Shown: positions 4,935 to 22,028, counted from the first letter of the stretch. The stretch: 64,000 nt of DNA from Rhodothermales bacterium (GCA_965232485.1 OZ246975.1:936959-1000958), one strand, 5' to 3'. The notes: generated by a model not told the origin, from the sequence alone. Program-made: numbers and translations.

Positions 4935-5084
4935 GGTAACGTTATCGTGAATCAAGTCTCCGGGCCTCTCGGGGACCATTGCGGGGCATTACCGTACGGA
5001 CAGCCAGGAAAACAACGAATTCGCCAACGATTAAGAAGTTGATGTTAACGCCTGCAAGCAACAAAGTCAATAAAAATTCAGAGG

Positions 5085-5221
5085 GAGGCGGTTCGGGTTA
5101 ACCGGAGGCCCTCGACGCCCTCCTTTGCGGGACGCCTCCCTGGGTTGTTTCGACAGGAACGAGGTCGCTATCCTGCGCCTTAAAGTCCCAAAAACGCTGT
5201 CCAACAAGCCCGAACCGCCTC
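5085..5221. repeat. 13-bp perfect inverted repeat pair flanking ~111 nt
   Basis: gaggcggttcggg (5085-5097) and its exact reverse complement cccgaaccgcctc (5209-5221). The core ggttcggg recurs at 5409-5416. Confidence 0.4.
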
Positions 5222-5238
5222 TACCCTCCGCCCTCTCC

Positions 5239-5343
5239 CTTCATTGCGCTGCTTTTAACGAAGAACAGCCGCATCGCAGGCTTGACAACATGACGCCCGA
5301 CGACGTATACTACAGACGCAAACCGCCGCAGAAGGCGACATGA
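5239..5343 (+). pseudogene. C-terminal remnant of an rve/DDE (IS3/IS481-like) transposase
   Basis: The tail of ORF 5125-5343 reads AAFNEEQPHRRLDNMTPDDVYY. This fits the conserved [FY]N-x2-(R)-P-H-x2-L-x3-TP-x2-[VF] end of integrase-core transposases. No catalytic core lies upstream, so it is a fragment. Confidence 0.45.
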
Positions 5344-5481
5344 CCCACCGTTGCCCTACGCTTGAAACGACCCGCAATAACTGTCTGGATTTTCCGGACC
5401 ATTCCTGTGGTTCGGGTGCAAAACGACCTTTCGATTACGAATCACGTATCTTTAAGGATGCTCTGATTGAATCCGCAAAGA

Positions 5482-5616
5482 TTCAGAGGCTGACAGGCGC
5501 TTCGCGAACGAGACGCCGCGAATCCGCCGTGTTTTTCGCTGATTTCAACGACGCCGTCATGTCGCGCTTTACGCGTGAAAGCGAAGCGCTGATCGAGGCG
5601 GACTTGATCAAAGCGC
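5482..5616 (+). repeat. Diverged/split copy of the hairpin repeat family seen at 59399-59511
   Basis: ttcagaggctgacaggcgct (5482-5501) matches ttcagaggctgcgaggcgct (59395-59414) at 18/20 positions. gcgctgatcga (5586-5596) and ttgatca (5604-5610) match the hairpin arms of the 59399-59511 repeats. Confidence 0.35.
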
Positions 5617-5723
5617 CCTTTGCATTGCGGGGAACGCCCCTGTTAATAACCCGGAGAGCGCTTCCGGTCCATCGCGAGCATGCTAACGCCAGACGGTAGA
5701 TCCGCGACGCCATGATAAGCTAA

Positions 5724-6923
5724 ATGGAAAATCACTCGGGCGAGGAAAACAAACTACTGTTCACGCCTGGTCCGCTGACCACCAGCCGGACCATCAAAGA
5801 AGCCATGCTGCGCGATTTCGGTTCGCGCGACACGGCCTTTATCGAAACCGTGCGCCGCATCCGGCGCCAACTACTGAAGATCGCCGGCGTTTCGCAAGAG
5901 GGCGGCTACGAAGCAATCCTGATGCAGGGAAGCGGGACATTCGGCCTCGAGTCCGTCGTGTCTTCGACCGTGCCCGAAGCGGGACGGATTCTTGTCGTCG
6001 TTAATGGGGCCTACGGCGAGCGCATCGTCAAGATGGCGCGCGTCCTCGATATCGATGCCCGGACGCTGCGTTACGAAGAGAACGCCCTCCCGGACGTCAA
6101 GGAGATTCGGCGGACGCTTGCCGAGGATGCAGCAGTCACCAACGTCTGCGTCGTGCACTGCGAGACGACCACCGGGCTTTTGAATCCTGTTGAAGAGATC
6201 GGAGCCGCTGTACGCGAGAAAGGTTGTTTCTACATCGTGGACGCCATGAGCAGCCTGGGGGCGATCCCCCTCAATCCCGAGGCCGCCTGCATTGACTTTC
6301 TGGTCACTTCGTCCAATAAGTGTCTCGAAGGGGTACCCGGTTTCTCCATCGCGCTTGCCCGGCGCGATGCGCTGATCGCCACGGAGGGAGCCGCGCGCAC
6401 GTTAAGTCTCGACCTGCAGGCGCAATGGCGCGGGCTCGAAGCCAACGGCCAGTTTCGCTTTACGCCTCCCACGCACGCGATCCTGGCGCTGGAGCAGGCT
6501 CTGCAGGAATTGGAAGACGAGGGGGGCGTCAGGGGCCGCGCAGCGCGTTACCAAACCAACCACGCCATATTAATGGAGGGTATGCAACGGTTGGGATTCC
6601 GCACGTATCTCTCCCCTGATCGCCAGAGTTATATCATTACCTCTTTCTATTATCCCGACGATCCGAACTTCTCATTCGAGACGTTTTACGAGCGGTTAAA
6701 CAGAAAGGGGTTCGTCGTCTATCCCGGCAAACTCACCCAGGCCGATTGCTTCCGCATCGGCAACATCGGCCAGATTTTCCCTGAGGACATGGTCCGTTTG
6801 CTTGCCGCCATTAAGGATACGCTTAAAGAAATGGGGGTAAAGACGGGCGCCTCTTCGATCAGGTCGAGGTCCGCAAAACAGAATGAAAACGCCTCAAACC
6901 ATGAACATGTCGGGCGCCTTTGA
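5724..6923 (+). CDS. phnW: 2-aminoethylphosphonate:pyruvate aminotransferase
   Basis: 399 aa. LLFTPGPLTTS near the N-terminus and the SSNKCLEGVPGFS PLP-Lys region are typical of class-V PhnW. phnA and phnY lie in the same strand block. Confidence 0.88.
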   Translation: MENHSGEENKLLFTPGPLTTSRTIKEAMLRDFGSRDTAFIETVRRIRRQLLKIAGVSQEGGYEAILMQGSGTFGLESVVSSTVPEAGRILVVVNGAYGERIVKMARVLDIDARTLRYEENALPDVKEIRRTLAEDAAVTNVCVVHCETTTGLLNPVEEIGAAVREKGCFYIVDAMSSLGAIPLNPEAACIDFLVTSSNKCLEGVPGFSIALARRDALIATEGAARTLSLDLQAQWRGLEANGQFRFTPPTHAILALEQALQELEDEGGVRGRAARYQTNHAILMEGMQRLGFRTYLSPDRQSYIITSFYYPDDPNFSFETFYERLNRKGFVVYPGKLTQADCFRIGNIGQIFPEDMVRLLAAIKDTLKEMGVKTGASSIRSRSAKQNENASNHEHVGRL

Positions 6924-7893
6924 TCGGAGGCGGTTTTTGCAGTTGGCGGGCAGCGGCCTTATAACGGGCCTGGCCGGCCGCGCGACGGGAGCGCCTTTTT
7001 ACGATTTCTGGCGTGACGGAGCCAACCCGCCGCTGCGGTTTGGCGTGATCGCCGACGTGCATCATGGACTCATGCCGAAGGCGGAAGAGCGGCTGGAAGC
7101 TTTTCTGGAAGAGGCGGGCCGGCGCGACCTGGACTTTCTCATTCAACTGGGCGATTTCTGCCACCCGCATCCCGACGCTCGCGCCTTCGTCAAGCTCTGG
7201 GAGCAAGCCGATGCGCCGCGCTACCATGTGCTTGGCAACCACGACATGGACCTGGGCGCCAAACGACAGATCATGGACTTCTGGCAGATGGAGCAGAACG
7301 TCTATTCCTTCGATGCAGGCGCCTGCCATTTCATAGCGCTCGACTGTAATTTTTTGCACGTCGACGGCGCGTACGTGGACTACGAGCATGGCAATTTCTA
7401 CGTGGACGATGCGCTCCGCACCTTCATTCACCCCGAGCAACTTGAGTGGCTCGAAGACGAACTGGCTTCAACCAATCGGCAGACTATCGTATTTACGCAT
7501 CAGGCGCTGGATGAGATCTGGAATGGAGGACTGGCCAAAAATCGCGAGACGGTCCGCCAGATCTTCGCCGAAGCGAACAAGCAGGCCGGTTTCCAAAAGG
7601 TAATTGCATGTTTCTCCGGCCATCATCATCTGGACGCGCACAGCATAATCGACGGCGTCCATTACGTGCAGGTTAACAGCGCCTCGTATTACTGGGTCGG
7701 CGAAGGGTATGGTCGGATGGCTGCATACCGGGACCCGTTGTTCGCCTTTGTCACGGTGGGCGCAGAAGGCGTCGTCATCGAAGGTCGGCGCAGCGTTTTT
7801 ACAGATCCAACCCCGATCGACCTCGAGTTTCCCGAGGCGCATCGGCTTTCCGCCAGCCTCTCCGACCGGACGCTGGCCTTTGCGCAGCCGTAA
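6883..7893 (+). CDS. Tat-exported calcineurin-like metallophosphoesterase
   Basis: Twin-arginine signal FDRRRFLQLAGSGLITGLAG. Motifs GVIADVHHG, LGDFCH, GNHDMD and GHHHLD are present. A start at 6883 overlaps phnW by 41 nt; ATG 6901 is an alternative. Confidence 0.8.
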   Translation: MKTPQTMNMSGAFDRRRFLQLAGSGLITGLAGRATGAPFYDFWRDGANPPLRFGVIADVHHGLMPKAEERLEAFLEEAGRRDLDFLIQLGDFCHPHPDARAFVKLWEQADAPRYHVLGNHDMDLGAKRQIMDFWQMEQNVYSFDAGACHFIALDCNFLHVDGAYVDYEHGNFYVDDALRTFIHPEQLEWLEDELASTNRQTIVFTHQALDEIWNGGLAKNRETVRQIFAEANKQAGFQKVIACFSGHHHLDAHSIIDGVHYVQVNSASYYWVGEGYGRMAAYRDPLFAFVTVGAEGVVIEGRRSVFTDPTPIDLEFPEAHRLSASLSDRTLAFAQP

Positions 7894-7934
7894 ACGATAT
7901 CAGGCCGCGTTTTCTAACGCTCATAACACACAGC

Positions 7935-10445
7935 ATGAACATGAAACGCATCATCCCGCTCAGGAAGCATGGATGTCTTTATGGCCTCAGCGCCATACTC
8001 TTACTCTTCATGGCGTCGTGTAGCGATGCGTCGCAGCAAGCAGGCCAGGACGCCCCGCGAGTCGTAGTGATCGGGGTGGACGGGATGAGCCCTGACGGTA
8101 TCCGCCATGCCGACACCCCGCATCTGGATGCCTTAATGGCGGGCGGCGCATATAGCTTCAAGGCCCGCGCCGTCCTGACCACATCCAGCAGCCAGAATTG
8201 GGCGTCCATGATTATGGGAACAGGACCCGTGCAGCACGGAATCACGTCCAACGACTGGCGACCCGACCACTTCAGCATAGAGCCCACGGCGGCCGGTTCG
8301 GGGCCTATCTTCCCTGCGGTGTTTGACCTGTTGCGCCAGCAAAGGCCCTCAGCGACAAGCGCCTCGATTTATGACTGGAGCGGCTTCGGACGCCTCTATA
8401 ACCAGGGCGCCGTCACAATTGACATAGACGCGGACGGCCCCCAGGCGACCACCGATGCAGCGGTACGCGTCTTCCGTAACGAAAACCCTGTTTTCACGTT
8501 TATTCACCTTGACCATGTGGACGCCGCCGGACACGGCTATGGGCATGGCGCCGAAGAGTACTATGCCGCTGTAGAAGAAGCTGATCGGTATATCGGCGAA
8601 ATCGTTGCGGGGCTGGAAGCAGCGGAAGTGCGCGAAAACACGACTATCATAGTCACAGCCGACCACGGCGGCAAAGACAAAGGCCACGGCGGGGAATCCA
8701 TGGGCGAGGTGGAGATTCCCTGGATTATCAACGGCCCGGGCGTTGCGGCCGGCAAGGAAATCAGCGAACCCATCAATACCTACGATACGGCTGCGACGGC
8801 AGCGTATGTCCTGGGCCTGGTTCCGCCTTATGCCTGGATAGCCCGTCCCGTCTATGATGCTTTCGAAGAGCCGGAGCGCCCGGAACCGATCGAGCCTGGC
8901 CTGGAAGGCGTCGAACATGTCGTGGTAATCGGCGTCGATGCGCTGAGCCCGGACGGTATCCAGAAAGCCCGCACCCCGACCCTCAACCACATGATTCAAA
9001 ACGGTGCGTACAGTTTTACGGCCCGGGGCGTATTGACCACATCCAGCAGCCAGAACTGGGCGTCGATGATCATGGGAGCCGGGCCGGAACAACATGGAAT
9101 CACTTCCAACGATTGGGAGCCTGACAACTTCTCCATCGAGCCCACGGCGAAGGGTCCGGAAGACCTCTTCCCGAGTATTTTTTCCGAACTCCGGGCTGCC
9201 GAGCCGGACGCCTATATCGCCTCCATCTACGATTGGGGCGGCTTCGGGCGGCTGTTTCCCCAAAGCGTGGTCGACGCAAGCATCGACGCCGAGAGTCCGC
9301 AGGACGCCGTGGACAAGGCCCGCGAACAGTTTATGGCGCGCCAGCCCCGGCTCACATTTATTCATCTCGACCACATAGACCATGCCGGCCATACGTACGG
9401 ACATGGATCGGACGAATTCTATGCCTCGGTCGAAGAAGCGGACCGGCTTATCGGCGAGGTCTTGGCGGGTCTGGAAGAAACTGGCATGGCAACGCAGACA
9501 CTGGTGCTCATCTCAGCCGATCATGGAGGAAAGGGTAAGGGCCATGGGGGCGAATCGATGGCCGAGCTTGAAATTCCATGGCTTGCATATGGTCCTGGCG
9601 TCGTGGCAGGCAAGCGCCTCACCGTTCCAATCAATACGTACGATACCGCTGCGACAGTATTGTTAGCCCTGGGTGTATCACAACCGTATGCCTGGATTGC
9701 ACGTCCTGTGGCCTCTGCTTTCGAACGCTATCACGACGCTTCCGAGCCTCTGGGAATGTATATGCCAGCTCCTCGAATTATCCCGCTGGGCGGTCTTGCG
9801 CTTCTGAATGAATCCCCTGAAATTACGATGACCGTAGCGGAGGATCCCGAAGCCGAAATACGATACACGCTCGACGGCAGCGATCCGGATGAGACTTCTC
9901 CGTTGTACGAGGGAGCCTTCCGGATCGCCGGCAATGTCCAGGTAAACGCCAGAACCTTTAAGGGAACGGCGACAAGCAGCGTCTCGCAAACGAGTTACCG
10001 GATACTGCCTCCCGGACAGACAAAAAAGGTCTCTTACGCTTACTACGAAGGGCAGTGGGAGTTCCTCCCCGACTTTGACCGGCTACAGCCCTTGCATACG
10101 GGCAAGGTCTATGAGTTTCACCTGGACGGCGTGGAGAATCGGCGCGAGGATTACTATGCCGTGAAGTTTGAGGGCGTCATCCTGATTGAACAAGCAGGGA
10201 CCTATACGTTCTACACCCGATCCGATGACGGAACCAAACTCTACGTGAACGGCATTGAGGTGGTGAACAATGACGGCTCCCATGGAGCGCTGGAAGAAAG
10301 CGGCGACATTGCCCTTGAGCCCGGAAGACACATGATCGAGGTAGAGTATTTTGAGCATTACGGGGGAGAACACCTCGAGGTGATGTACCATGGGCCGGGG
10401 GTTGAAAGAACCCTGCTCTCCTACATGGTATTTCAATCGGAGTGA
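7935..10445 (+). CDS. Lipoprotein with two tandem alkaline-phosphatase/NPP-superfamily modules plus a PA14-like C-terminal domain
   Basis: Lipobox LLLFMASC. Module 1 (8061-8864) and module 2 (8919-9722) share VVVIGVD..SPDG, TTSSSQNWASMIMG, HGITSNDW, FIHLDH..AGH, ADHGGK.KGHGGES and YAWIARPV. These are followed by IRYTLDGSDP (chitobiase/FN3-associated-like) and a PA14 pattern (YAYYEGQW, YAVKFEGVI, GTYTFYTRSDDGTKLYVNG). Confidence 0.8.
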   Translation: MNMKRIIPLRKHGCLYGLSAILLLFMASCSDASQQAGQDAPRVVVIGVDGMSPDGIRHADTPHLDALMAGGAYSFKARAVLTTSSSQNWASMIMGTGPVQHGITSNDWRPDHFSIEPTAAGSGPIFPAVFDLLRQQRPSATSASIYDWSGFGRLYNQGAVTIDIDADGPQATTDAAVRVFRNENPVFTFIHLDHVDAAGHGYGHGAEEYYAAVEEADRYIGEIVAGLEAAEVRENTTIIVTADHGGKDKGHGGESMGEVEIPWIINGPGVAAGKEISEPINTYDTAATAAYVLGLVPPYAWIARPVYDAFEEPERPEPIEPGLEGVEHVVVIGVDALSPDGIQKARTPTLNHMIQNGAYSFTARGVLTTSSSQNWASMIMGAGPEQHGITSNDWEPDNFSIEPTAKGPEDLFPSIFSELRAAEPDAYIASIYDWGGFGRLFPQSVVDASIDAESPQDAVDKAREQFMARQPRLTFIHLDHIDHAGHTYGHGSDEFYASVEEADRLIGEVLAGLEETGMATQTLVLISADHGGKGKGHGGESMAELEIPWLAYGPGVVAGKRLTVPINTYDTAATVLLALGVSQPYAWIARPVASAFERYHDASEPLGMYMPAPRIIPLGGLALLNESPEITMTVAEDPEAEIRYTLDGSDPDETSPLYEGAFRIAGNVQVNARTFKGTATSSVSQTSYRILPPGQTKKVSYAYYEGQWEFLPDFDRLQPLHTGKVYEFHLDGVENRREDYYAVKFEGVILIEQAGTYTFYTRSDDGTKLYVNGIEVVNNDGSHGALEESGDIALEPGRHMIEVEYFEHYGGEHLEVMYHGPGVERTLLSYMVFQSE

Positions 10446-11860
10446 GGATTTCCGCAAACCAGCCTCAGTGGATAATGAAGCAGCATCGCGCCAACCAGGA
10501 TCCGGACTATCTTGACTCTGAGGGCGATTTGAATATCTCGCCGCGCCGGGCCGCCTGGGTCGCTGACCAGATTGACGAGGAGACGAAGGCGCTGCTGGAC
10601 GAAGACGCCCGGTACTTTCTGCGCCAGTCGCTCTCCACGCCCTGCCTCAATGTGCTGCGCGCGTGTGACGGGGTCTACATTGAAGACTATCAGGGCCGGC
10701 GCATCATGGATTTCCACGGCAACTGGGTGCATCAGGTCGGCTTCCGGAATCCACGTGTAATTGCGGCCATTACAGAGCAGCTACACACCCTTCCGTTCTG
10801 CACGCGGCGGTATACGAACGCACCCGCCATCGAACTCGCCAAAAAGCTGGCCGAACTGGCGCCCGGCATGCTCAACAAGGCGCTCTTCGCCCCCGGCGGA
10901 GCGCTTGCAATGGGCATGGCCCTGAAATTAGCCCGCGTCGCGACAGGGCGCTTCAAAACCATCTCCATGTGGGATGCTTTTCATGGCGCGTCTCTCGACG
11001 CAATCTCCATTGGCGGAGAAGCCGTTTTTCGCCGCGGCATTGGCCCGCTATTGCCAGGAACCGAACATGTGCCGCCGCCCAATCCAAGCGCATGCCCCTT
11101 TGGCTGCCAACGTACGTGCAGCCTGAAATGCGCCGAGTATATCGACTACGTCCTTGAGAAAGAAGGCGATGTCGCGGCGGTGGTCGCCGAAACAGTGCGC
11201 AGCGTCCCGTACATCCCCCCTGTCGAATACTGGCAGATCGTGCGAAAAGCCTGCGATCGTCACGGCGCCCTGCTGATTCTGGATGAGATTCCGCACGCCC
11301 TCGGGCGCACCGGGACCATGTTCGCCTGCGAGCGCTACGGCGTCGAGCCGGATATCCTTGTCCTTGGCAAGGGGCTCGGCGGCGGCGTCTTCCCGCTTGC
11401 CGCCATGCTTGCCCGCGAAAATCTCGACGTGGCGAAAGATAGCGCGCTCGGACACTACACGCACGAGAAAAATCCTGTAGCCTGCGCCGCCGCGCTGGCT
11501 GCCATTCATTTCCTAGAAGAAGAAAATATCCTCGCCCATACGCGCACCCTCGGCGCATGGGCGCTTGATCAGATGCGCATGATGATGGAACGCCACCGCC
11601 TCATCGGCGACGTGCGGGGTCTGGGGCTAATGCTCGGCATGGAACTCGTGAAGGATCGGGCTACGATGGAACGCGCACCCGGGGCCGCAGAGGAAGTCAT
11701 GTACCGGGCGTTGTCTCGCGGGCTCAGTTTCAAGCTGACCATGGGCAATATCATTGCGCTGGCGCCGGCGCTCACCATTACCCGGGAGGAAATGGCCAAG
11801 GCGTTGGACATTCTGGACATCTGCATTACAGAGGTGGAAGCCGGGGGAACTGCCGATTAA
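10442..11860 (+). CDS. Class-III (aspartate aminotransferase family) PLP enzyme; candidate aminophosphonate transaminase or PbfA-like lyase
   Basis: The GTG start overlaps the previous stop (GTGA); ATG 10475 is an alternative. DFHGNWVHQVGF, LILDEIPHALGRTG and LGKGLGGG (Schiff-base Lys) are class-III hallmarks. The specific function is inferred from phosphonate context only. Confidence 0.75.
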   Translation: MRISANQPQWIMKQHRANQDPDYLDSEGDLNISPRRAAWVADQIDEETKALLDEDARYFLRQSLSTPCLNVLRACDGVYIEDYQGRRIMDFHGNWVHQVGFRNPRVIAAITEQLHTLPFCTRRYTNAPAIELAKKLAELAPGMLNKALFAPGGALAMGMALKLARVATGRFKTISMWDAFHGASLDAISIGGEAVFRRGIGPLLPGTEHVPPPNPSACPFGCQRTCSLKCAEYIDYVLEKEGDVAAVVAETVRSVPYIPPVEYWQIVRKACDRHGALLILDEIPHALGRTGTMFACERYGVEPDILVLGKGLGGGVFPLAAMLARENLDVAKDSALGHYTHEKNPVACAAALAAIHFLEEENILAHTRTLGAWALDQMRMMMERHRLIGDVRGLGLMLGMELVKDRATMERAPGAAEEVMYRALSRGLSFKLTMGNIIALAPALTITREEMAKALDILDICITEVEAGGTAD

Positions 11861-12014
11861 CCATAGCCTGGCAAACAAATCAGAGGTTTCATTTAATTTC
11901 GAAATGGCGTATGATAGATGTGTATTGTGCAACTTTATGTTTCGATTTACGATCATTGCCCCTTGCTGTCGCCAACCGAGTAGTTAAGCGAGCGTAACCA
12001 CTATAAAAACCGCG

Positions 12015-13307
12015 ATGTCCAGCAAGCATGCAAACGACCGTCCCATTTCCACTACCCCTTTCACGGTCAACGGGCGGACCTACCGCCCCCCGGATCGTCC
12101 TGTGGCGGTCGTCTGCATCGACGGATGCGCCGATGAATATCTAAGCGCTTCGCTGGCGCGCGGGCGTATGGACAACCTCCAGCGGATGCTGGCCGCCGGA
12201 GGATATCGCGGGATGGTCCGGGGCGCTCTCCCCTCCTTCACCAACGTCAACAATGCGTCCATCGCGACGGGGCTTCCGCCGTCGGCGCATGGGATAAGCG
12301 GTAATTTTTTTCTTGATCCGGAGACAGGCGAAGAGGTGATGATGAACTCGGCCGCCTATCTTCGCGCCGAGACGATACTTGCCGCGGCAGCCCAGGCCGG
12401 CCGAAAGGTGGCCATGGTGACCGCCAAAGAAAAGCTCCGGGATATACTCGCCCACAACCTCGACGGCGTCGCCTTCTCCGCCGAGAAAGCGAACGAGGCA
12501 ACAGAAGAAACACACGGTATCTCGGATGTCGAAGAGTTGGCAGGGGCTTCCACGCCGCCGATTTACAGCGCCGACGCAAGCTTGTTCGTGCTCAAAGCCG
12601 GCGTGGCGCTCATGGAAAAGGGGCTGGCCGATTTCCTTTACTTGTCGCTGACCGACTATATGCAGCACAAGTATGCGCCAGACGCCCCGGAGTCCCTGGA
12701 TTTTCATGAAAACCTTGATCGCGAACTGGGGCGTTTGCTTGCATGCGACGCTGTCGTCGGAGCCACGGCGGATCACGGCATGAATGCGAAGCAGACGCTC
12801 GACGGTAAACCCAACGCAATCTATCTGGAGAGCCTGCTAACCGAAAAATTCGGGGAAAACATCCGTGTCATTCTGCCCATCACCGACCCATATGTAGTAC
12901 ATCACGGGGCCCTTGGGGCCTTTGCAGTGGTCCATGTGCCCGACCCGATAATAATCGATGCTGTGCTTGGTTACGTGCGCGAGATCGACGGCATTACAGA
13001 AGCGTACGACCGAGCGACCGCCGCAAGAAAGCTTCAATTGCCGCAAGACCGTATCGGCGACCTCGCAGTGCTGTCCGGGCGTGACGTGGTGATCGGGCGC
13101 ACGCCGGCGCATCACGATCTAAGTCTCGTTCAAGGCGGGTTGCGCTCCCATGGAGGACGTTACGAAGAAATGGTGCCGCTGCTTCTCTCCGAGCCGCTCA
13201 ATGCGCTCTATGCCCGTTATGCAGCCGCCGATCCGCGTAATTTCGATGTCTTCGACTTCACTGTGAACGGAACCCTTGCGTCAACGCGCGCTATCGAACC
13301 AGGATAA
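12015..13307 (+). CDS. phnA: Phosphonoacetate hydrolase (alkaline-phosphatase superfamily)
   Basis: 430 aa. VAVVCIDGCADEYL, PSFTNVNNASIATG and HGISGNFF are motifs of phosphonoacetate hydrolase. The gene sits directly upstream of phnY. Confidence 0.82.
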   Translation: MSSKHANDRPISTTPFTVNGRTYRPPDRPVAVVCIDGCADEYLSASLARGRMDNLQRMLAAGGYRGMVRGALPSFTNVNNASIATGLPPSAHGISGNFFLDPETGEEVMMNSAAYLRAETILAAAAQAGRKVAMVTAKEKLRDILAHNLDGVAFSAEKANEATEETHGISDVEELAGASTPPIYSADASLFVLKAGVALMEKGLADFLYLSLTDYMQHKYAPDAPESLDFHENLDRELGRLLACDAVVGATADHGMNAKQTLDGKPNAIYLESLLTEKFGENIRVILPITDPYVVHHGALGAFAVVHVPDPIIIDAVLGYVREIDGITEAYDRATAARKLQLPQDRIGDLAVLSGRDVVIGRTPAHHDLSLVQGGLRSHGGRYEEMVPLLLSEPLNALYARYAAADPRNFDVFDFTVNGTLASTRAIEPG

Positions 13308-13359
13308 CAGGCGATCCAGCCCCTTAAGCGCCTTTCGTCTATAATATGACCCCGGAATT

Positions 13360-14817
13360 ATGGAAACGTCTATCGCCATTTCCAAAAACGACCATGTCGG
13401 CGCGCATGATCTTCCCTGTTACATTGCGGGACGTAAAGTCGTCACGGATGAACGGTTAACGGTTTACAATCCCTATACCGGCGACGTCGCCGGGACGGTA
13501 AGCAGTGTCTGTCGCAGCCAAACGCACGAGGCCATTGAGGCCGCGCTCAAAGGAGGCGAGTTGCTGACGCGCTATCGGCGCTACGAGATCCTGAACAAGG
13601 CGCGCTCGCTTTTGCTGGAGCAAGCGGAATCGTTTGCCCATTTGATAACGGCAGAGTCGGGGCTGTGCCTGCGCGAAACCCGGTACGAGGTCGGGAGAGC
13701 CTGCGACGTGCTTCAGTTTGCCGCAATGGAGGCGCTGAAAGATGACGGGCAGATATTTTCCTGCGACATTACGCCCACCGGGAAGGCCCGGAAAATCTTT
13801 ACGTTGCGCGAACCGCACCGCCTGGTAGTCGCCATTACCCCATTCAATCACCCCCTCAACCAGGTGATGCACAAGATCGCTCCAGCCATTGCCGTCGGAG
13901 CGCCGGTGGCGCTCAAGCCTTCCGAAAAGACGCCGCTTACGGCTGTCCGGTGCGTCGAGTTGATGTATGAAGCAGGGCTGCCCGAATGGATGCTGAGCGT
14001 TATCGTCGGACCAATGGACGAGGTGGCCGAGGAACTGGTCGTCGACCCTCGAACCGAAGTAGTGAGCTTTACCGGCAGCGTCGAAATCGGTAAGAAAATC
14101 GCTCAAAGAGCCGGTTACAAAAAGCTGATTCTGGAACTGGGCGGAAATGCCCCGTTGATCGTACTGGAAGACGCCGACATGGACCTGGCCGTGCACCTGG
14201 CCGCGGAAGGATGTTATCGCAACTCAGGCCAGCGTTGCACCGCCGTAAAACGCTTGCTCATCCACGAAGACGTCCTGGATACGTTTACCAGGCGCTTCGT
14301 ACAAGCCTCGAAAGCCTATGTCTATGGCGACCCAATGGACCTGGATACGCGCGTCGGGACAGTCATCGACGAGGCAGCGGCCATCCGGCTTGAGACCGTG
14401 GTGCAGAAAGCCGTCGACGGCGGAGCCCGGGTGTTGCTCGGCGGCGAACGCCGCGGCGCCCTCCTCGCGCCGACCGTAATCGCCGACACGCCGCGCGATG
14501 CAGAGATGGTTATGTGCGAATCCTTCGGTCCTCTGGCGCCCATTATGGCGATCAAGGACCTCGACGACGCCATCGCACTTGCCAACAGCACGGACTACGG
14601 CCTCTCTTCCGGCATAGTCACCAAAGACTTCAACAAAGCGCTTAAGGCGGTAAAGGAAATACGCACGGGCACTGTGAACATTAATGAGGTGCCCGGCTAC
14701 CGCATCGAGTTGTCTCCCTTCGGCGGCGTAAAAGATTCCGGTTTGGGAATCAAAGAGGGCGTCCTTGAGACCATGAAGGGGTTAACCGCAGTGAAAACGT
14801 TTTCCCTGCCCTGGTAG
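13360..14817 (+). CDS. phnY: NAD-dependent aldehyde dehydrogenase, probable phosphonoacetaldehyde dehydrogenase
   Basis: 485 aa ALDH fold (ELGGNAP, GQRCTA catalytic Cys, PFGGVKDSG). Its position between phnA and the other phosphonate genes supports the PhnY role. Confidence 0.78.
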   Translation: METSIAISKNDHVGAHDLPCYIAGRKVVTDERLTVYNPYTGDVAGTVSSVCRSQTHEAIEAALKGGELLTRYRRYEILNKARSLLLEQAESFAHLITAESGLCLRETRYEVGRACDVLQFAAMEALKDDGQIFSCDITPTGKARKIFTLREPHRLVVAITPFNHPLNQVMHKIAPAIAVGAPVALKPSEKTPLTAVRCVELMYEAGLPEWMLSVIVGPMDEVAEELVVDPRTEVVSFTGSVEIGKKIAQRAGYKKLILELGGNAPLIVLEDADMDLAVHLAAEGCYRNSGQRCTAVKRLLIHEDVLDTFTRRFVQASKAYVYGDPMDLDTRVGTVIDEAAAIRLETVVQKAVDGGARVLLGGERRGALLAPTVIADTPRDAEMVMCESFGPLAPIMAIKDLDDAIALANSTDYGLSSGIVTKDFNKALKAVKEIRTGTVNINEVPGYRIELSPFGGVKDSGLGIKEGVLETMKGLTAVKTFSLPW

Positions 14818-14821
14818 CTAT

Positions 14822-16966
14822 ATGTCGAAAAGGTTCGATATCCAAAGACAAACCGGGAGGCCGATTATGCGCTGGCTTCCAACGGACCGGATAACGGGGA
14901 TCGTCGCAGGCTTGTTGTGCTCCCTGACTACGCTCGCCCATGCGCAACCGCTGCCCTTCTACGACAATTTCAATGACGGCGACTATGCTGGTTGGACAGT
15001 TACGGACGATGTGCAACCACAACACGGACCCAGCGAATGGGTGGTCGAGCAGGGCGTATTGGTTCAAAAATCCAACATCTGGGCCTATGGACCCGTGGAG
15101 TTGGAAACAAAATACCATCTGGGCACGCACATCGCCGCCGGCGACAGAAACTGGACCGATTATTCGCTCAATGCGCTGGTCCGATCCGCAGACAATGACG
15201 GAGTCGGCCTGATCTTTCGCTACCAGGACGCAAAAAATTATTACCGTGTCCTATTGATGAACGACCCGTCCTGGTCAGGCCGGGACTCCTCGGGAACGCC
15301 TGTTAACACCCCATTGCAGCGCATCCAGAAATTCGTCGATGGAGAGCCATATATCCTCGCTGAAAATCTGGTCTCCCAAGCCTATCCCTCCGGCTTCTTT
15401 GCCTTGACGGCAGACGTGCGGGGCGACGCCATCCACGCCTATCTCAATGGAAACCTGATTCTGAGCGCCAGGGACCGGCAGCACGAGGCAGGCGGTATCG
15501 GGTTGTTGTCTTACGCCAACGCCGGGGCGTATTACGATAGCGTGTCCGTTACGAGCGAGCAGTTTATATATTCCAAACCGGACGAGACGATCATTACGTA
15601 TCCAGTTCGGGAATTCAGGGCTCCGTACATCCAGAATCCAACCCGTACCTCTGTCGAAGTTGCCTGGCGCACGGTCGAGAAACAGGTTGGAAGGGTGAAG
15701 TACGGGCAAAAAAAGGGGGTCTTAAGCGAGGAAGCGGTGGAATCGGAAGCCCGGCAAAAACATCACGTCAAGATTAATGGCCTGGAGGAAAGCACCCGGT
15801 ATTTCTACGAGGTTTACAGCGAAAATCAACGCGTGGCGGGCGAAGAGAATTTTCGCACGGCCCGAAGTCATGACGAAACGCTGTTTTCCTTCCTGGTTCT
15901 CGGCGATAGCGGCGTGGACACCCCCACCCAGTGGCGTCTGGGCCGGCAGATGCAGCTCAGCGCGAATAATAGAGAGATTGATTTTATTGTCCACGTGGGA
16001 GATGTGCATCAGGGCAGCGGGGACTACTACGACGATATATACTTTAAACCCTACGCCAGTTTGCTCAAGAACGTCAATGTGTTCACCTCACTTGGCAACC
16101 ACGACGTGATTACGGACAACGGCGGGGTGTACCTTGATGATTTTTACCTGCCTCACAACAACCCGGACAGCACCGAGCGCTACTATTCTTTCCGCTGGGC
16201 TAATGCCTATTTCATCGCCCTGGACACCAACGGAGACTTCAGTCCCGGTTCGCCCCAACATGCTTTTCTGATCAATGCATTGACCGATAGCCTCCGAACT
16301 TCGGCCGCCTGGACGTTCGTCTATGCTCATCATCCGCCCTACACTGAGCACTGGACCGATTATTATGGCGACAAAAGGGTTCAGGATCATCTGGTGCCCA
16401 TTTACGAGCAATACGACGTGGACATGGTGATGAATGGCCATACGCACAGTTACGAGCGCGGAGAGATGGAACATGTGCACTACCTGGTTTCCGGCGGCGG
16501 AGGCGGTGGCCTGGACGATTATTTTACCGATTACGACCACATCGCCTTCTCCGACATGGTCCATCATTTTACGCGAATTGATGTGGATAACGATGAATTG
16601 CACGTCACAGCCATTGATCAGCAAAGCAGTGTGGTAGATCGATTTACGATAAATAAATTCGTACAGGTATCCATCCAGGATCATGAGCTGCCCCAGGCGC
16701 TGGATTTTATTGATCTGGAGCCCGGTTACCCGAATCCCGTCACCGATACGACTGCTTTCGTGTATCGCATCGCGCAAGAGGCGCGGGTGAAACTCGAACT
16801 GTTCGACCTGACCGGGCGCAAGTTGTCCACTCTGGTCGATCAGTTTCATCCCGTTGGAACATACAGGGTCGTGCTTGACGCCGCCCGTCTGGCGAACGGA
16901 ACGTATGTGGTGAACCTGACCGCCGGAAACTTTACGCGAAGCCAACAACTGACGATTATCAAATAA
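14822..16966 (+). CDS. Secreted DUF1080/LamG-like + purple-acid-phosphatase-like metallophosphoesterase with T9SS type-A C-terminal domain
   Basis: Has a signal peptide. PFYDNFNDGDYAGWTV..WVVEQGVLVQ is DUF1080-like. LVLGDSG, HVGDVH, GNHD, HHPPY and NGHTHSYER are metallophosphoesterase motifs. The C-terminus GYPNPVTDTTAFVYRI..LELFDLTGRKL..GTYVVNL..QQLTIIK is a T9SS sorting tail. Confidence 0.8.
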   Translation: MSKRFDIQRQTGRPIMRWLPTDRITGIVAGLLCSLTTLAHAQPLPFYDNFNDGDYAGWTVTDDVQPQHGPSEWVVEQGVLVQKSNIWAYGPVELETKYHLGTHIAAGDRNWTDYSLNALVRSADNDGVGLIFRYQDAKNYYRVLLMNDPSWSGRDSSGTPVNTPLQRIQKFVDGEPYILAENLVSQAYPSGFFALTADVRGDAIHAYLNGNLILSARDRQHEAGGIGLLSYANAGAYYDSVSVTSEQFIYSKPDETIITYPVREFRAPYIQNPTRTSVEVAWRTVEKQVGRVKYGQKKGVLSEEAVESEARQKHHVKINGLEESTRYFYEVYSENQRVAGEENFRTARSHDETLFSFLVLGDSGVDTPTQWRLGRQMQLSANNREIDFIVHVGDVHQGSGDYYDDIYFKPYASLLKNVNVFTSLGNHDVITDNGGVYLDDFYLPHNNPDSTERYYSFRWANAYFIALDTNGDFSPGSPQHAFLINALTDSLRTSAAWTFVYAHHPPYTEHWTDYYGDKRVQDHLVPIYEQYDVDMVMNGHTHSYERGEMEHVHYLVSGGGGGGLDDYFTDYDHIAFSDMVHHFTRIDVDNDELHVTAIDQQSSVVDRFTINKFVQVSIQDHELPQALDFIDLEPGYPNPVTDTTAFVYRIAQEARVKLELFDLTGRKLSTLVDQFHPVGTYRVVLDAARLANGTYVVNLTAGNFTRSQQLTIIK

Positions 16967-17130
16967 CGTAACCCGAAACGCAAGGCGACGCGAGGCAGGT
17001 ATGACATGGCGCATGGCGACTGGTTGCCCGATGGCGTTCGTGGTTTTCAGGGTATGTGGAATCTACCTGATTTTTATCATCGACGATCCTTTCGCCGTCA
17101 TGCGCAGGCGGCGTCGATGAAATAGCGCGC

Positions 17131-18333
17131 ATGCCAACCGTCATGTCAAGCGGCGCCAAACACATGCCCCATGCGCTAAAAGCAGATATTGCCGTGATCG
17201 GCGCGGGTATCGCTGGAATCGCCCATGCCCTCGAGGCGGCGCGGCGGGGACTATCGGTCGTCCTCTTTGAGCGCGACACGCGCGCGCTCGGAGCCTCGAT
17301 TCGCAACTTCGGCATCGTCTTTCCACTCGGGATGTCGCCTGGAACATCCCACGAGCGGGCCTTGCGTAGTCGAGCGACCTGGCTGGAGATCGCAACTCAG
17401 GCGGGTATTTGGCGCAAGTCGACAGGCTCCCTCATCGCAGCCTACCACGAGGATGAGTATGCCGTTCTAAACGAATTTATCGAAGAGGCCCCAAAACTCG
17501 GCTACAGGTGCGCATGGCTTGATCCCGAAGAGGCGGTTCGCCGAAGCCCGGCCCTTCGGACTCACGGACTGCGAGGCGGGCTCTGGAGCCCGGAGGAGAT
17601 TATCGTTGACCCGCGCGAGGCCATAGCAAAGCTTCCCGGTTACCTTCATAGTAAGTACAATGTTGAATTGCGCTTCGGAAAAACCGTCGCCGGCATTGCC
17701 ATGCCTTACATTGAAGCCGGCGACGAGATATGGCGCGTCGAACGGGCTGTCGTATGCAGCGGCGCTGACTTCGAAACGCTGTACCCGGCTGCTTTCGCCG
17801 CCAGCGGACTGACGCGCTGCAAACTGCAGATGATGCGCACGGTCCCGCAACCCGGCATGTGGCGCCTCGGCCCTATACTTGCCACCGGCCTCAGCCTGCG
17901 TCGCTATCCGGCATTCTCGTTGTGCCCATCGCTGCCCGCCTTGAAACGCCGCATTGCTCAGAACCATCCGGCCCTCGAACAATGGGGAATCCATATCCTG
18001 ATTGCGCAAAACGGCGCGGGAGAACTCCTCCTGGGGGATTCTCACGAGTATGGCTGGACGCCGGATCCGTTCGATCGCCCGGAGATCGACGCGCTGATCC
18101 TGACGTATCTGGAGACCATTTTTGCGCCGCCTTCGTTGACGATTCTCCAGCGCTGGCGCGGCGTATACGCCAAGCGCCCCGCACATGACGTCTTCCTTGC
18201 AGAGCCAGAGCCGAATGTTCGCATCGTCAATGGCCTCGGCGGAACCGGCATGACCACAAGTTTCGGCCTGGCGCAAGATGTTTTTACCGATTGGGAGGGA
18301 GCGCGGAACCTTACCTTGCAGGAGATTCCTTAA
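17131..18333 (+). CDS. FAD-dependent oxidoreductase (DAO family; TIGR03364-like clade associated with phosphonate loci)
   Basis: Rossmann motif DIAVIGAGIAGIAHALEAARRGLSVVLFERD. Size and synteny fit the phosphonate-associated FAD oxidase clade, but this family call is unverified. The start could be ATG 17164. Confidence 0.72.
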   Translation: MPTVMSSGAKHMPHALKADIAVIGAGIAGIAHALEAARRGLSVVLFERDTRALGASIRNFGIVFPLGMSPGTSHERALRSRATWLEIATQAGIWRKSTGSLIAAYHEDEYAVLNEFIEEAPKLGYRCAWLDPEEAVRRSPALRTHGLRGGLWSPEEIIVDPREAIAKLPGYLHSKYNVELRFGKTVAGIAMPYIEAGDEIWRVERAVVCSGADFETLYPAAFAASGLTRCKLQMMRTVPQPGMWRLGPILATGLSLRRYPAFSLCPSLPALKRRIAQNHPALEQWGIHILIAQNGAGELLLGDSHEYGWTPDPFDRPEIDALILTYLETIFAPPSLTILQRWRGVYAKRPAHDVFLAEPEPNVRIVNGLGGTGMTTSFGLAQDVFTDWEGARNLTLQEIP

Positions 18334-18363
18334 CCCGTCTCGCAACCTGCCATCTCCTTGCCG

Positions 18364-19668
18364 ATGAATCCGACCTCGATGCAAACGGACGCTGAACGTT
18401 CACTGGCTATCTTTCCCGCCGGATCGAATGGCGAATTCAACCTTCCAGCCGCTCTGTCCATGGTGATTGCGCGCGGTTCGGGCTGCGATCTCTGGGACAC
18501 CGATGGAAAGCGCTATGTGGACTTCTCGATGGGATGGGGCTCGGCGCTCGTCGGGCATGGGCGTCGCGAAATCGCCGAGGCCGTAGCGCAGCAGGCGCCG
18601 AAGGGAGCTAATTTCGCGTACGTCACGGAGACTTCGCTCGCACTGGCCGAAGAAATTGTCCGGATAAGCGCGGCTTGCGAAAGGCTGCGCTTCTGCGCCT
18701 CCGGCACCGAGGCAACCATGTACAGTCTGCGTCTGGCGCAGGCTTTTACTGGACGTTCTCGCGTGATCAAGTTCGAGGGGGCTTACCATGGAGCGAATGA
18801 CGTCGGCGTAACCAGCTTGTTTCCACAGCACTTGCCCGATTTCCCCACGCCTGAGCCATCCTCTGACGGCATCGATCACCTTGTGCGCGATCATGTCCTG
18901 ATTGCACCTTATAACGACCTGGAAACAACCCAACGGATCATCGCCGCCTACGCCGACGAAGTAGCGGCGGTGATTGTAGAGCCGCTGCATCGCTGTCTGC
19001 CTCCGGTATCGGGTTTCCTGCAAGGCTTGCGCGAGATTACAGCCGCCCACGGCATACTGCTGATCTTCGACGAAGTGGTAACCGGATTCCGTCTGGCTTA
19101 CGGGGGCGCCCAGGAATACTACGGCGTCGCGCCAGACCTCGCGGCCTACGGAAAAGCGCTCGGGGGCGGCTATCCAATCGGCGCCTATGGCGGTCGCTTC
19201 GAAATCATGGATCTGGTGCGCGAAGATCGCCTGGGAAAAGAAACCTACGTCTGGACGGCCTCTACGCTGGGCGGCAACCCGATTTCGACGGCGGCTGCAG
19301 GAGCGGCCTTGTCCGTATTTCGACAGCCCGGCGCCTACGAACATCTGCACGAGATCGGCGCTTATCTGCGAGAGGGAATGAGGCAGGCGCTCCAGGCGCG
19401 AGGCGTCCCCGGGCAGATAATCGGCGACGGCCCGTTGGCTCAGGCGGTCTTCACGCGCGAAGAGGAGCCGATCCTGGACTACCGTTCCACCCGGCGCGGC
19501 GACGCACAAACCAGCCGAGCCGTAATGCTCGGTCTTTTCAGCCGGGGCGTCTTTCTCAACCCCATGGGAACCAAGCTCTACCTGTCACTGGCTCACGACA
19601 AAGCGGCCTGCGACGTGTTTCTTGATCGCTTCGACGACACGCTCGCGAAGGTTTTGCCTGCCGCCTGA
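18364..19668 (+). CDS. Class-III PLP enzyme, glutamate-1-semialdehyde-aminomutase-like
   Basis: The track start 18358 is TTG; I prefer ATG 18364. ASGTEATMYSLRLAQAFTGR, FDEVVTGFRLAYGGAQ and YGKALGGGYPIGAYGG match the GSA-aminomutase-like subgroup. Confidence 0.75.
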   Translation: MNPTSMQTDAERSLAIFPAGSNGEFNLPAALSMVIARGSGCDLWDTDGKRYVDFSMGWGSALVGHGRREIAEAVAQQAPKGANFAYVTETSLALAEEIVRISAACERLRFCASGTEATMYSLRLAQAFTGRSRVIKFEGAYHGANDVGVTSLFPQHLPDFPTPEPSSDGIDHLVRDHVLIAPYNDLETTQRIIAAYADEVAAVIVEPLHRCLPPVSGFLQGLREITAAHGILLIFDEVVTGFRLAYGGAQEYYGVAPDLAAYGKALGGGYPIGAYGGRFEIMDLVREDRLGKETYVWTASTLGGNPISTAAAGAALSVFRQPGAYEHLHEIGAYLREGMRQALQARGVPGQIIGDGPLAQAVFTREEEPILDYRSTRRGDAQTSRAVMLGLFSRGVFLNPMGTKLYLSLAHDKAACDVFLDRFDDTLAKVLPAA

Positions 19669-19698
19669 CTTTCCAACGATCATTGCCCCGGCCCAAGC

Positions 19699-20982
19699 AT
19701 GACCCATTCCTTGCTTCCAAAACCCTGGCGTCACCGGATATTCACAGTGACATGGCTTGCCTACGCCGGTCTCTACCTGTGCCGAAAAAATTTCAGCGTG
19801 GTCATGCCATTCCTGATGGGCGAGTACGGGTTCACCAAAACTGATCTCGCCTGGGTTCTTACCGGCTACAGTCTCATCTACATGTTGGGCCAATTTGTTA
19901 ACGGCCTGCTCTCTGATCGCTTCGGGCCGCGGATCATCGTCGCCACAGGCATTCTGATATCTGTTTTTTCAAACGTCGCAATGGGCTTCGGAGCCTCTCT
20001 GTTTTTGTTCATATTCATGATGTGGAGCAATGGTTACGGGCAATCGACAGGATGGCCCGGACTAATCAAGAACATGTCTTCCTGGTTCCGACACCAGGAG
20101 CGGGGCGTGGTGATGGCCTGGTGGTGTACATGCTATGTGGTAGGCGGCTTCGTGGGCACGATCTTTGCCACATACTGGGCCACGAATGAGATGTTTTTCG
20201 CCGATCTGGGCTGGCGGAGGGCTTTCTGGGCGCCCGCGCTTCTGCTTACGATCATCGCCGGCGCATACGCGCTCTTCACGCGAAACCGGCCTTCGGATGC
20301 AGGGCTTCCGGACCTGCCGGAGGATGACGCCGATGAAACCGCTCCTTCTCCGGTTAGCGGCGCAGAAAGGAGGTCTGTACTGCGAGAGGTCCTGTCCAAT
20401 TCGGCGCTATGGGTGACGGGCGCGATGTACTTCTTCACAAAGATGACCCGTTACGCATTTCTATTCTGGCTCCCGCTCTATATGACCGAGGCGCTCGACT
20501 ATACGGAGCGTGCGGCAGGGTACACTTCTTCCGTCTACGAAATAGTCGGTTTCTTGGGAGTGATAATGGCCGGCTATGCCTCCGACAAACTCTTTCAGGC
20601 GCGCCGTTTCCCGGTCGGCGCACTCATGCTATATGGATTGGCGCTGACCCTTTTACTTCACCCTACCCTGGCGGAACTCGGCGTCGTAGCCAATATCGTC
20701 AGCATTGGCGTCATCGGGATCATGACGTTTGGGCCGGACGCGCTCATGTCCGGCGCCGCCGCAATGGACATTGGCAGCCAGCGGGGGGCCGCCACAGCGG
20801 CAGGTCTGATAAATGGCATGGGGTCCTGCGGCCAACTGATTTCTCCCCTCCTCGTCGCCTATGTAGCCGAACACTTCGGCTGGAACAGCATGTTCTACCT
20901 GTTCGTGATCTTCGCTATAATCTCCGGAACGCTGCTCACGACGAAGTGGAATTACGGAAAAAGAGTTGTTCCTGCGTCATGA
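19699..20982 (+). CDS. MFS transporter, organophosphate:Pi antiporter (GlpT/UhpC-like) family
   Basis: 427 aa, multi-TM. YLCRKNFSV, GQFVNGLLSDRFGPR, NGYGQSTGWPG and WFRHQERG resemble OPA-family signatures. Confidence 0.78.
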   Translation: MTHSLLPKPWRHRIFTVTWLAYAGLYLCRKNFSVVMPFLMGEYGFTKTDLAWVLTGYSLIYMLGQFVNGLLSDRFGPRIIVATGILISVFSNVAMGFGASLFLFIFMMWSNGYGQSTGWPGLIKNMSSWFRHQERGVVMAWWCTCYVVGGFVGTIFATYWATNEMFFADLGWRRAFWAPALLLTIIAGAYALFTRNRPSDAGLPDLPEDDADETAPSPVSGAERRSVLREVLSNSALWVTGAMYFFTKMTRYAFLFWLPLYMTEALDYTERAAGYTSSVYEIVGFLGVIMAGYASDKLFQARRFPVGALMLYGLALTLLLHPTLAELGVVANIVSIGVIGIMTFGPDALMSGAAAMDIGSQRGAATAAGLINGMGSCGQLISPLLVAYVAEHFGWNSMFYLFVIFAIISGTLLTTKWNYGKRVVPAS

Positions 20983-21008
20983 GGGCGCTACAAATGGACG
21001 ACTTCGCG

Positions 21009-21947: not shown

Positions 21948-22028
21948 GGTTGCATGGATTTGAGTTCAAAAAAACGCGCGCAAGCGGCCCGGAGTCGCCC
22001 GGTCTGCTCCCATCTTCTTCCAGTCTTG

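Follow-up and report, generated by a model that had tools for sequence, protein, structure and literature searches.

In a 64,000-nucleotide (nt) stretch of DNA from a Rhodothermales bacterium (GCA_965232485.1 OZ246975.1:936959-1000958; hereafter the window), an island of genes for aminophosphonate breakdown includes a gene for a HemL-like class-III enzyme dependent on pyridoxal phosphate (PLP). Judged by its sequence, this enzyme is not HemL, the glutamate-1-semialdehyde aminomutase (GSAM): it comes from the HemL/GSAM lineage without the HemL active-site signature, and it belongs to a clade whose members recur in several phyla beside genes for the catabolism of 2-aminoethylphosphonate (AEP). 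The balance tips slightly towards explaining the whole as an aminophosphonate scavenging island in which a HemL-like aminotransferase supplies phosphonoacetaldehyde (PAA); for the narrower statement that the enzyme is an aminophosphonate transaminase, we put the chance close to even, on the lower side.

An initial annotation had singled out two class-III enzymes and one flavin adenine dinucleotide (FAD) oxidase of the island as signs of a widened aminophosphonate substrate range, and had added that no phosphonate role is assigned to the aminomutase-like member. The interpretation is supported here, the wider range on the basis of homology and gene context, and the added remark agrees with the literature to mid-2026 (papers on phosphonate breakdown factors, Pbf, included), in which our search found no HemL-like, GSAM-like or aminomutase-like enzyme in phosphonate catabolism, nor any PbfE or PbfH. 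The ancillary enzymes described are PbfA (2021), PbfB to PbfD (2023), PbfF (2025) and PbfG/PhpC (2026). Hydrolytic AEP clusters that include ancillary enzymes are a known kind of system, and the island is one of them; the HemL-like family, as far as we can tell, is undescribed in that literature as a recurrent component.

Distribution of the family and its phosphonate neighbours

To compare gene contexts, homologues were taken from one genome per species, giving 68 loci of the clade (55-93% identity to the window protein; numbered with the prefix L) and 12 loci of a sister clade (42-46%). Neighbours were sought in 10-kb flanks by tblastn, the queries being verified window proteins plus PhnX and PhnS2 of related loci, and neighbours at selected loci were scored, in bits, against curated NCBIfam cutoffs. 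Clustering the neighbours de novo, from the output of a crude open reading frame (ORF) caller, recovered the main recurring partners; at high-GC loci it gave many spurious singletons and lost some true genes, among them the HemL-like and phnA ORFs of L052, and it was because of these faults that verified tblastn queries and NCBIfam checks were used.

At 24 of the 68 clade loci, AEP-catabolic genes lay within 10 kb of the HemL-like gene. The 12 sister-clade loci (L074-L085; Dehalococcoidia, Rokubacteria, Methylomirabilota and Nitrospinota) had no phosphonate genes within that distance (Fisher p = 0.014), and for a random gene we estimate the chance expectation at far below 1%. The positive loci are scattered across the whole neighbour-joining tree, with about nine arrangements in four phyla, and come from Rhodothermales, Alphaproteobacteria (Hyphomicrobiales, Rhodospirillales), one gammaproteobacterium, Planctomycetota (Pirellulales, Planctomycetaceae, Phycisphaerales) and Chloroflexota (Anaerolineales, Caldilineaceae, Ardenticatenales). 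Peracchi and co-workers define a phosphonate breakdown factor operationally, by its recurrent association with AEP-degradation clusters, and the co-location of the HemL-like family with phnW, phnX, phnA, phnY, pbfA or pbfD is both recurrent and phylogenetically dispersed.

The gene orders are collected in Table 1. The gene for PhnW, the AEP transaminase, directly adjoins the HemL-like gene in L052, L061, L063 and L018. Phosphonate-type transporters also lie close by, in the form of PhnS2TU, PhnCDE and transporters of the major facilitator superfamily (MFS) resembling the AEP permease AepP. Within Rhodothermales the row of pbfD, HemL-like gene and MFS gene is conserved, and the pair formed by the last two is kept in L004, L005, L006, L007, L009 and L062. 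At L005 (6248-7869) an IS66 element occupies the place of pbfD, between the secreted phosphatase and the HemL-like gene, with the pair intact; L004 has a second copy of the pair with transposases around it.

In two settings neither phnW nor pbfD was found near the HemL-like gene. The Rhodospirillales locus L071 has, besides phnA and phnD-E-C, a zinc-dependent alcohol dehydrogenase (Zn-ADH) similar to HpnZ/PbfG (TIGR03366, 291 bits, cutoff 328), and within the 10 kb examined there was no phnW and no pbfD. Three metagenome contigs and the locus L011, from a metagenome-assembled genome (MAG), have an operon headed by a TmpA-like dioxygenase, in whose flanks, as far as examined, neither PhnW nor PbfD was found; at L093 (5514-12494) the TmpA-like protein scores 364 bits with NF049936 (cutoff 400) and the Phn-HD oxygenase 201.5 bits with TIGR03276 (cutoff 214.6). 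The DUF5690 and DUF5001 proteins of this operon type are a membrane protein and a PHP-like metallohydrolase, and SusC/SusD genes adjoin; by appearance these two uncharacterised proteins would serve a new phosphonate module as its transporter and its hydrolase.

Other neighbours occur in narrower sets of loci. In L035 (11275-13725), as in L032, L036, L057 and L073, the HemL-like gene adjoins one for an 810-aa fused DAO-FAO_M-GCV_T protein of dimethylglycine/sarcosine dehydrogenase type (DMGDH-like), which in L035 sits 3' of phnX; a possible role for this protein is folate-dependent N-demethylation of N-methylated aminophosphonates. About 1 kb 3' of phnW and the HemL-like gene in the Ardenticatenales MAG (L063, 5797-8245) are genes for a citryl-CoA-lyase-like protein and an acylating protein resembling sulfoacetaldehyde dehydrogenase (SauS, 481 bits, cutoff 600), which hint at a CoA-acylating route for PAA. 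In Lacipirellula limnantheis I41 (L055; NZ_CP036339.1, 2680507-2701760) phnX and pbfD lie 8-9 kb from the HemL-like gene; this is the sole cultured isolate among the 80 genome matches, and a practical host for genetics.

Departure of the clade from HemL

Window proteins were scored with Pfam models and against the curated cutoffs of NCBIfam. The best named models for the HemL-like protein, and its best matches in the Protein Data Bank (PDB; about 269 bits, against 665-914 bits for members of its own family), are GSAMs, and JGI labels many of its homologues glutamate-1-semialdehyde 2,1-aminomutase, as would be expected of a housekeeping hemL for tetrapyrrole synthesis that stands beside phosphonate genes by chance. 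We rejected this identity, which we consider very improbable, on cutoffs, motifs and context. The protein falls below both HemL cutoffs (NF000818, 346 against 398 bits; TIGR00713, 337.7 against 527.3), is 36% identical to Escherichia coli HemL and has the invariant substrate motifs replaced; PGAP gives clade members no more specific name than 'aspartate aminotransferase family protein', and at no locus did the annotated neighbours include a recognised haem-pathway gene. Because members from different phyla are 55-93% identical and have invariant motifs of their own, the clade is a distinct orthologous group.

The active site was compared in an alignment of 67 clade members with E. coli HemL, and in a smaller alignment that also included E. 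coli GabT and the window PbfA. The roles that we assume for GSAM and GabT residues (substrate-carboxylate motif, gating loop, active-site Glu and the carboxylate-binding Arg398 of GabT) are those of the known structures; Glu399 of E. coli HemL corresponds to Glu406 in Synechococcus numbering, and Glu at this position excludes external keto acids. The clade retains the PLP Lys (YGKALGGG) and the PLP Asp (FDEVVTGFR). The Ser/Arg motif of HemL, GGVNSPVRAF, is replaced in at least 95% of the 67 members by FPAGSNG---EFNLP, with a 3-residue deletion and no Arg. The gating loop KAGSG..TLG.P.SPGVP gives way to TSLFP..DFP.PEPSS.GI, which is 3 residues longer. EPVAGNMNC of HemL becomes EPL[H/Q]RC, the Arg being kept in at least 95% of members, and a Lys (NPMGTKL), kept at the same frequency, aligns with both HemL Glu399 and GabT Arg398. 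The sister clade keeps this Lys together with an EP[LV]QR motif.

The motif EP[LI][Q/H] and the basic residue at the Arg398 position would bring the enzyme closer to an intermolecular transaminase than to an aminomutase, and they bear on the question of whether HemL-type chemistry has been kept. An aminomutase/isomerase or PLP racemase could act on an amino-oxo or chiral aminophosphonate and turn a dead-end isomer into a substrate of PhnW, PbfA or PbfD, a role for which PbfF, an isomerase that feeds PbfA, offers a precedent; GSAMs are the closest solved structures and models, and another PAA-forming enzyme is always present where phnX or phnA adjoins, except at L071, which fits an upstream feeder. 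We nevertheless find such an isomerase improbable, since three elements specific to GSAM chemistry are gone (gating loop, Ser/Arg carboxylate site, and the Glu by which external keto acids are excluded), and the EP[LI][Q/H] motif and the basic residue at the Arg398 position look more like an ordinary transaminase; moreover, we know of no natural vicinal amino-oxo-phosphonate that could serve as its substrate.

HemL is the nearest named relative, with which the enzyme has in common its class-III fold family, the two PLP residues (Lys and Asp) and the greater part of the cofactor-binding scaffold; the substrate Arg motif, gating loop and active-site Glu are replaced, and the gene context is one of phosphonates, not haem. 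GSAM-like scaffolds that act as true intermolecular transaminases are already known among the beta-phenylalanine/beta-transaminases, D-phenylglycine aminotransferase and GntE. The window protein matches PDB entries 4ao9, 2yku and 2cy8 at 163-174 bits, below the GSAMs, and the GntE model at 297 bits; the substrates of these enzymes are aromatic or guanidino amino acids, none of them linked to phosphonates, unlike the context of the HemL-like family. A second PbfA-like lyase was also considered and rejected, the HemL-like enzyme being 27% identical to the window PbfA and matching no PbfA model.

Proposed reaction and contexts that do not fit

In the explanation that we favour, the core route of the island, which the curated models show, runs from AEP to PAA through PhnW, from PAA to phosphonoacetate through PhnY, and on to acetate and phosphate through PhnA. 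Side entries would be provided by PbfA, which would convert (R)-1-hydroxy-AEP to PAA and ammonia, and by the TIGR03364/PbfD oxidase, which would convert N-methyl-AEP and AEP to PAA. The HemL-like clade has been recruited into phosphonate-catabolic operons by several phyla and would there convert an anionic primary omega-amine to an aldehyde by PLP-dependent transamination, the amine being brought in by the adjacent transporter (AepP-like MFS, PhnS2TU, PhnCDE or DUF5690). In phosphonate clusters this aldehyde would be PAA or a close analogue, consumed by PhnX or by PhnY and PhnA, and the amine most probably AEP or a substituted AEP that PhnW handles poorly. Candidates include (S)-1-hydroxy-AEP, 3-aminopropylphosphonate and AEP made by a neighbouring N-demethylase. 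The Lys at the GabT Arg398 position and the family-specific Arg of the EPL[H/Q]RC loop are candidate ligands for the carboxylate of the keto acid or for the phosphonate.

The proposed role, aminophosphonate to aldehyde for PhnX or PhnY/PhnA, is that of PhnW, although PhnW belongs to class V and the HemL-like enzyme to class III, unrelated subfamilies whose genes are often adjacent. In L071 and in the TmpA-type operons neither PhnW nor PbfD lies in the examined flank, which suggests that the HemL-like enzyme can be the amine-to-aldehyde step; the four loci where phnW adjoins argue for a difference from PhnW, either of substrate or of the amino acceptor. We advance only tentatively the further idea of an unrecognised, widespread phosphonate breakdown factor with a specificity distinct from that of PhnW (for example for (S)-1-hydroxy-AEP, 3-aminopropylphosphonate or another aminophosphonate that lacks a route), which would give the pathway a new entry, perhaps with another acceptor, and which in Bacteroidota-type operons would form with DUF5690 and DUF5001 a self-contained module for uptake, transamination and cleavage.

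Several points weigh against an aminophosphonate transaminase. Some 60% of the clade loci are without a recognisable phosphonate gene in the examined flanks, some of the contigs being only 3-5 kb long, and the Fisher comparison has a small control of 12 sister loci. With phnW alongside, plain AEP transamination would be redundant at L052, L061, L063 and L018, and a keto-acid-dependent transaminase does not usually have Lys where GabT has Arg398. For the clade at large, the function is predicted from sequence and gene context. Two contexts that look unrelated to AEP also recur. In Acidiferrobacterales the HemL-like gene lies between a Zn-ADH (ADHz) and genes for SIS, short-chain dehydrogenase/reductase (SDR) and cupin proteins, followed by an OpuAC ATP-binding cassette (ABC) transporter, ChoK/APH and a DMGDH-like protein, with the cupin and Zn-ADH in some loci only; in Kiloniellaceae the order is thiamine pyrophosphate (TPP) enzyme - DUF6445 - HemL-like gene - GlcD-like oxidase. 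The members from these two groups, about 69% identical to the window protein, probably share its chemistry, in which case the true substrate may be broader, a general anionic or N-methyl-derived amine.

The conserved row at L002/L092 (2783-21347), of Acidiferrobacterales type, is longer still: RidA - PhyH - serine hydroxymethyltransferase (SHMT) - NUDIX/DUF4743 - MatE - Zn-ADH - HemL-like gene - SIS - SDR - OpuAC ABC - ChoK/APH - DMGDH-like. Such a row, which shares the HemL-like enzyme, may serve the catabolism of quaternary or N-methyl amines. To read the Kiloniellaceae TPP enzyme as sulfoacetaldehyde acetyltransferase (Xsc), and so to link the family to taurine, is speculation.

These non-phosphonate contexts are what a general omega-amine:keto-acid transaminase of amine and osmolyte catabolism would lead one to expect. 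Such an enzyme would have no phosphonate specificity; its substrates could be GABA, beta-alanine, taurine-like compounds or amino-aldehydes from the demethylation of N-methyl amines, and it would turn up in phosphonate islands because nutrient-scavenging loci collect amine-handling genes. The genes downstream in L035, for DMGDH-like, succinic-semialdehyde- or betaine-aldehyde-dehydrogenase-like (SSADH/BADH-like ALDH) and 4-hydroxybutyrate-dehydrogenase-like iron-dependent (Fe-ADH) enzymes, resemble an N-methyl-omega-amino-acid route, and alcohol and aldehyde dehydrogenases are common neighbours of the family. A general transaminase does less well with the placing of the gene, which is inserted between phnW and phnA in L052 and between phnW and phnX in L061 and directly follows phnX in L035, with gaps below about 100 nt; with transporter partners of phosphonate type; and with nine arrangements in four phyla, a co-location not easily coincidental. 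We regard it, and the gathering of amine-handling genes that it invokes, as unlikely, and continue with the aminophosphonate transaminase.

The Rhodothermales island and its significance

Between 5.3 and 21 kb of the window the genes form a single row on the plus strand, with short or overlapping gaps (Table 1), in the order phnW, two phosphoesterase genes, pbfA, phnA, phnY, secreted phosphatase, FAD oxidase, HemL-like gene and MFS transporter; 30 nt separate the HemL-like gene from each of its two neighbours. The three accessory enzyme genes lie where the initial annotation had put them: 10442-11860 (GTG start, 472 aa), 17131-18333 (ATG, 400 aa) and a TTG-initiated ORF of 436 aa at 18358-19668, in which 18364 is an in-frame ATG at codon 3 and the point at which the closest homologue, P0001, starts. 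The nearest genome locus, from a Rhodothermales MAG (L006, OX638295.1), encodes proteins 89-96% identical to those of the window.

Table 1. Genes of the window, with model scores in bits, and gene orders at homologous loci (X, HemL-like gene; bracketed numbers after gene names are scores)
Gene or locus	Position	Strand	Model match or gene order
TonB-dependent outer-membrane receptor	2025..4979	-	divergent from the row; all model matches below cutoff
PhnW, 2-aminoethylphosphonate:pyruvate transaminase, class V	5724..6923	+	NF010006 492 (cutoff 296); TIGR02326 473 (cutoff 401)
Calcineurin-like metallophosphoesterase	6883..7893	+	Pfam Metallophos 58
NPP-type alkaline-phosphatase-superfamily phosphodiesterase, 836 aa	7935..10445	+	Phosphodiest 203, PA14 50, Fn3_assoc 52
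PbfA, predicted (R)-1-hydroxy-AEP ammonia-lyase	10442..11860	+	NF049939 690 (cutoff 525)
PhnA, phosphonoacetate hydrolase	12015..13307	+	TIGR02335 501 (cutoff 408)
PhnY, phosphonoacetaldehyde dehydrogenase	13360..14817	+	TIGR03250 639 (cutoff 635.65)
Purple-acid-phosphatase-like metallophosphoesterase, secreted, with C-terminal sorting domain of the type IX secretion system (T9SS)	14822..16966	+	Metallophos (54), Pur_ac_phosph_N, Por_Secre_tail, 3keto-disac_hyd
PbfD-type FAD amine oxidase (predicted)	17131..18333	+	TIGR03364 434 (cutoff 285); DAO 144
HemL-like class-III PLP enzyme	18364..19668	+	Aminotran_3 208; GSA aminomutase models best, below cutoff
MFS transporter, organophosphate:Pi antiporter (GlpT/PgtP) family	19699..20982	+	TIGR00881 243 (cutoff 408)
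L052 Hyphomicrobiales			phnW (554) - X - phnA (522) - phnY (815)
L061 Caldilineaceae			phnW (480) - X - phnX (333) - HAD - pbfA (712)
L063 Ardenticatenales			GntR - phnW - X
L035, L036 Rhodospirillaceae; L032 Alphaproteobacteria			phnS2-T-U - phnX (288) - X - DMGDH-like - ALDH - Fe-ADH, then LysR, pbfA - phnW
L042 Hyphomicrobiales			pbfA (623) - X
L060 Anaerolineales			pbfA and X divergent
L050 Pirellula, L069 Pirellulales			X convergent with phnX (335) - pbfD (446) - Phn-HD (224); scores and HD gene from L050
L049 Phycisphaerales			NPP-like - X - phnC (300) ... phnE (215.4, just under the 216.7 cutoff)
L071 Rhodospirillales	3370..10034		X, LysR, phnA (559) - HpnZ/PbfG-like Zn-ADH - BADH-like ALDH - phnD-E-C
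L088, L091, L093 metagenome contigs; L011 MAG locus		one strand	TmpA-like dioxygenase - Phn-HD oxygenase - Fe-ADH - DUF5690 - X - DUF5001

The other two accessory enzymes are new members of kinds already known, with roles that we infer from characterised homologues. The class-III aminotransferase-fold gene of the initial annotation (Aminotran_3, 271 bits) can be named, by the curated equivalog model, as a bona fide PbfA: protein residues 26-464 match positions 1-441 of the 442 of NF049939 at 690.4 bits. There is a 4-nt overlap between its start and the stop codon of the gene before it, and it lies between phnW and phnA-phnY on one strand, the context of a hydrolytic AEP cluster. PbfA was discovered in 2021 as a lyase of class-III fold that converts (R)-1-hydroxy-AEP to PAA (PMC8154272), and the described alphaproteobacterial examples likewise stand in phnW-phnA-phnY clusters; nothing notable sets the window PbfA, whose activity is assigned by homology, apart from them except the host phylum, Rhodothermota.

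The FAD oxidoreductase, with a DAO domain at residues 19-382 (Pfam), falls in TIGR03364 as had been suggested (433.9 bits against a cutoff of 285.1), and is probably of PbfD type, with N-methyl-AEP or AEP to PAA as the expected reaction. FAD enzymes of AEP clusters form three groups, PbfB, PbfC and PbfD, of which PbfD1 is annotated as TIGR03364; PbfD enzymes oxidise N-methyl-AEP, and also AEP, to PAA (Zangelmi et al., 2023; PMC10590968), and have been found in the FCB and PVC groups (PMC10590968; PMC13576164). The window enzyme may be PbfD1-like or PbfD2-like, a distinction that bears on the preference for N-methyl-AEP over AEP. Its gene shares the row with phnY and phnA, as in Planctomycetes pbfD adjoins phnX.

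The summary of Pbf biochemistry in the initial annotation agrees with the Pbf papers, and none of the three enzymes clusters with housekeeping families; the aminomutase-like member forms a clade of its own in the neighbour-joining tree, falls below both HemL cutoffs and lacks the HemL substrate-binding motifs. As to the statement that the locus is richer than textbook clusters, mixed 'à la carte' clusters with several Pbf genes were already recognised, so only the HemL-like gene is new.

The MFS protein has PgtP and GlpT as its best models, below cutoff, and is encoded with AEP genes. AepP, the 2AEP permease, is related to GlpT (PMC8316502), and the window transporter is plausibly AepP-like. 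The divergent TonB-dependent receptor may be the uptake component of the island, its membership being suggested by position; its best models are TonB-hemin (TIGR01785, 71 bits, cutoff 317) and SusC/RagA (TIGR04056, 68 bits, cutoff 368), and at two related metagenome loci, L088 and L091, a similar receptor is encoded alongside. Among the phn genes are interspersed those for three phosphoesterases predicted to be extracytoplasmic: the calcineurin-like protein, the NPP-type phosphodiesterase, which is probably extracytoplasmic, and the purple-acid-phosphatase-like protein, which includes a 3-keto-disaccharide-hydrolase-like domain; proteins of the latter type are also encoded near the HemL-like gene in L005, L009, L088 and L091. 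Together with the receptor alongside, the layout resembles a system in the style of a polysaccharide utilisation locus for freeing and importing phosphonate head groups.

At the edges of the row, an ORF of 119 aa (5340-5699) had no Pfam or NCBIfam match and one of 456 aa (21258-22628) no NCBIfam match. A promoter and terminator scan of 4900-21400 gave counts at the level of shuffled sequence and is uninformative on operon structure; a strong sigma-70-like match of 11 out of 12 positions lies at 5282-5311, just 5' of the 119-aa ORF, in a scan that overall is at chance level.

Much of the organic phosphorus of the sea and of soils, and some of the nitrogen, is held in aminophosphonates. New enzymes that channel these compounds towards PhnX or PhnA continue to be described, and the HemL-like family, which current annotation wrongly labels HemL or 'aspartate aminotransferase family protein', is a candidate addition to them; to judge from sequence and neighbourhood, it may well prove to be an enzyme new to the phosphorus cycle. 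If its members do act on phosphonates, the annotation of marine and soil metagenomes would be off, with hemL counts inflated and the potential for phosphonate catabolism under-counted, and the hydrolytic pathways would have a wider substrate range; the family would also be a clear case of the HemL scaffold re-tooled into a different PLP enzyme. For specialists it is a concrete and cheaply testable lead rather than a conceptual surprise.

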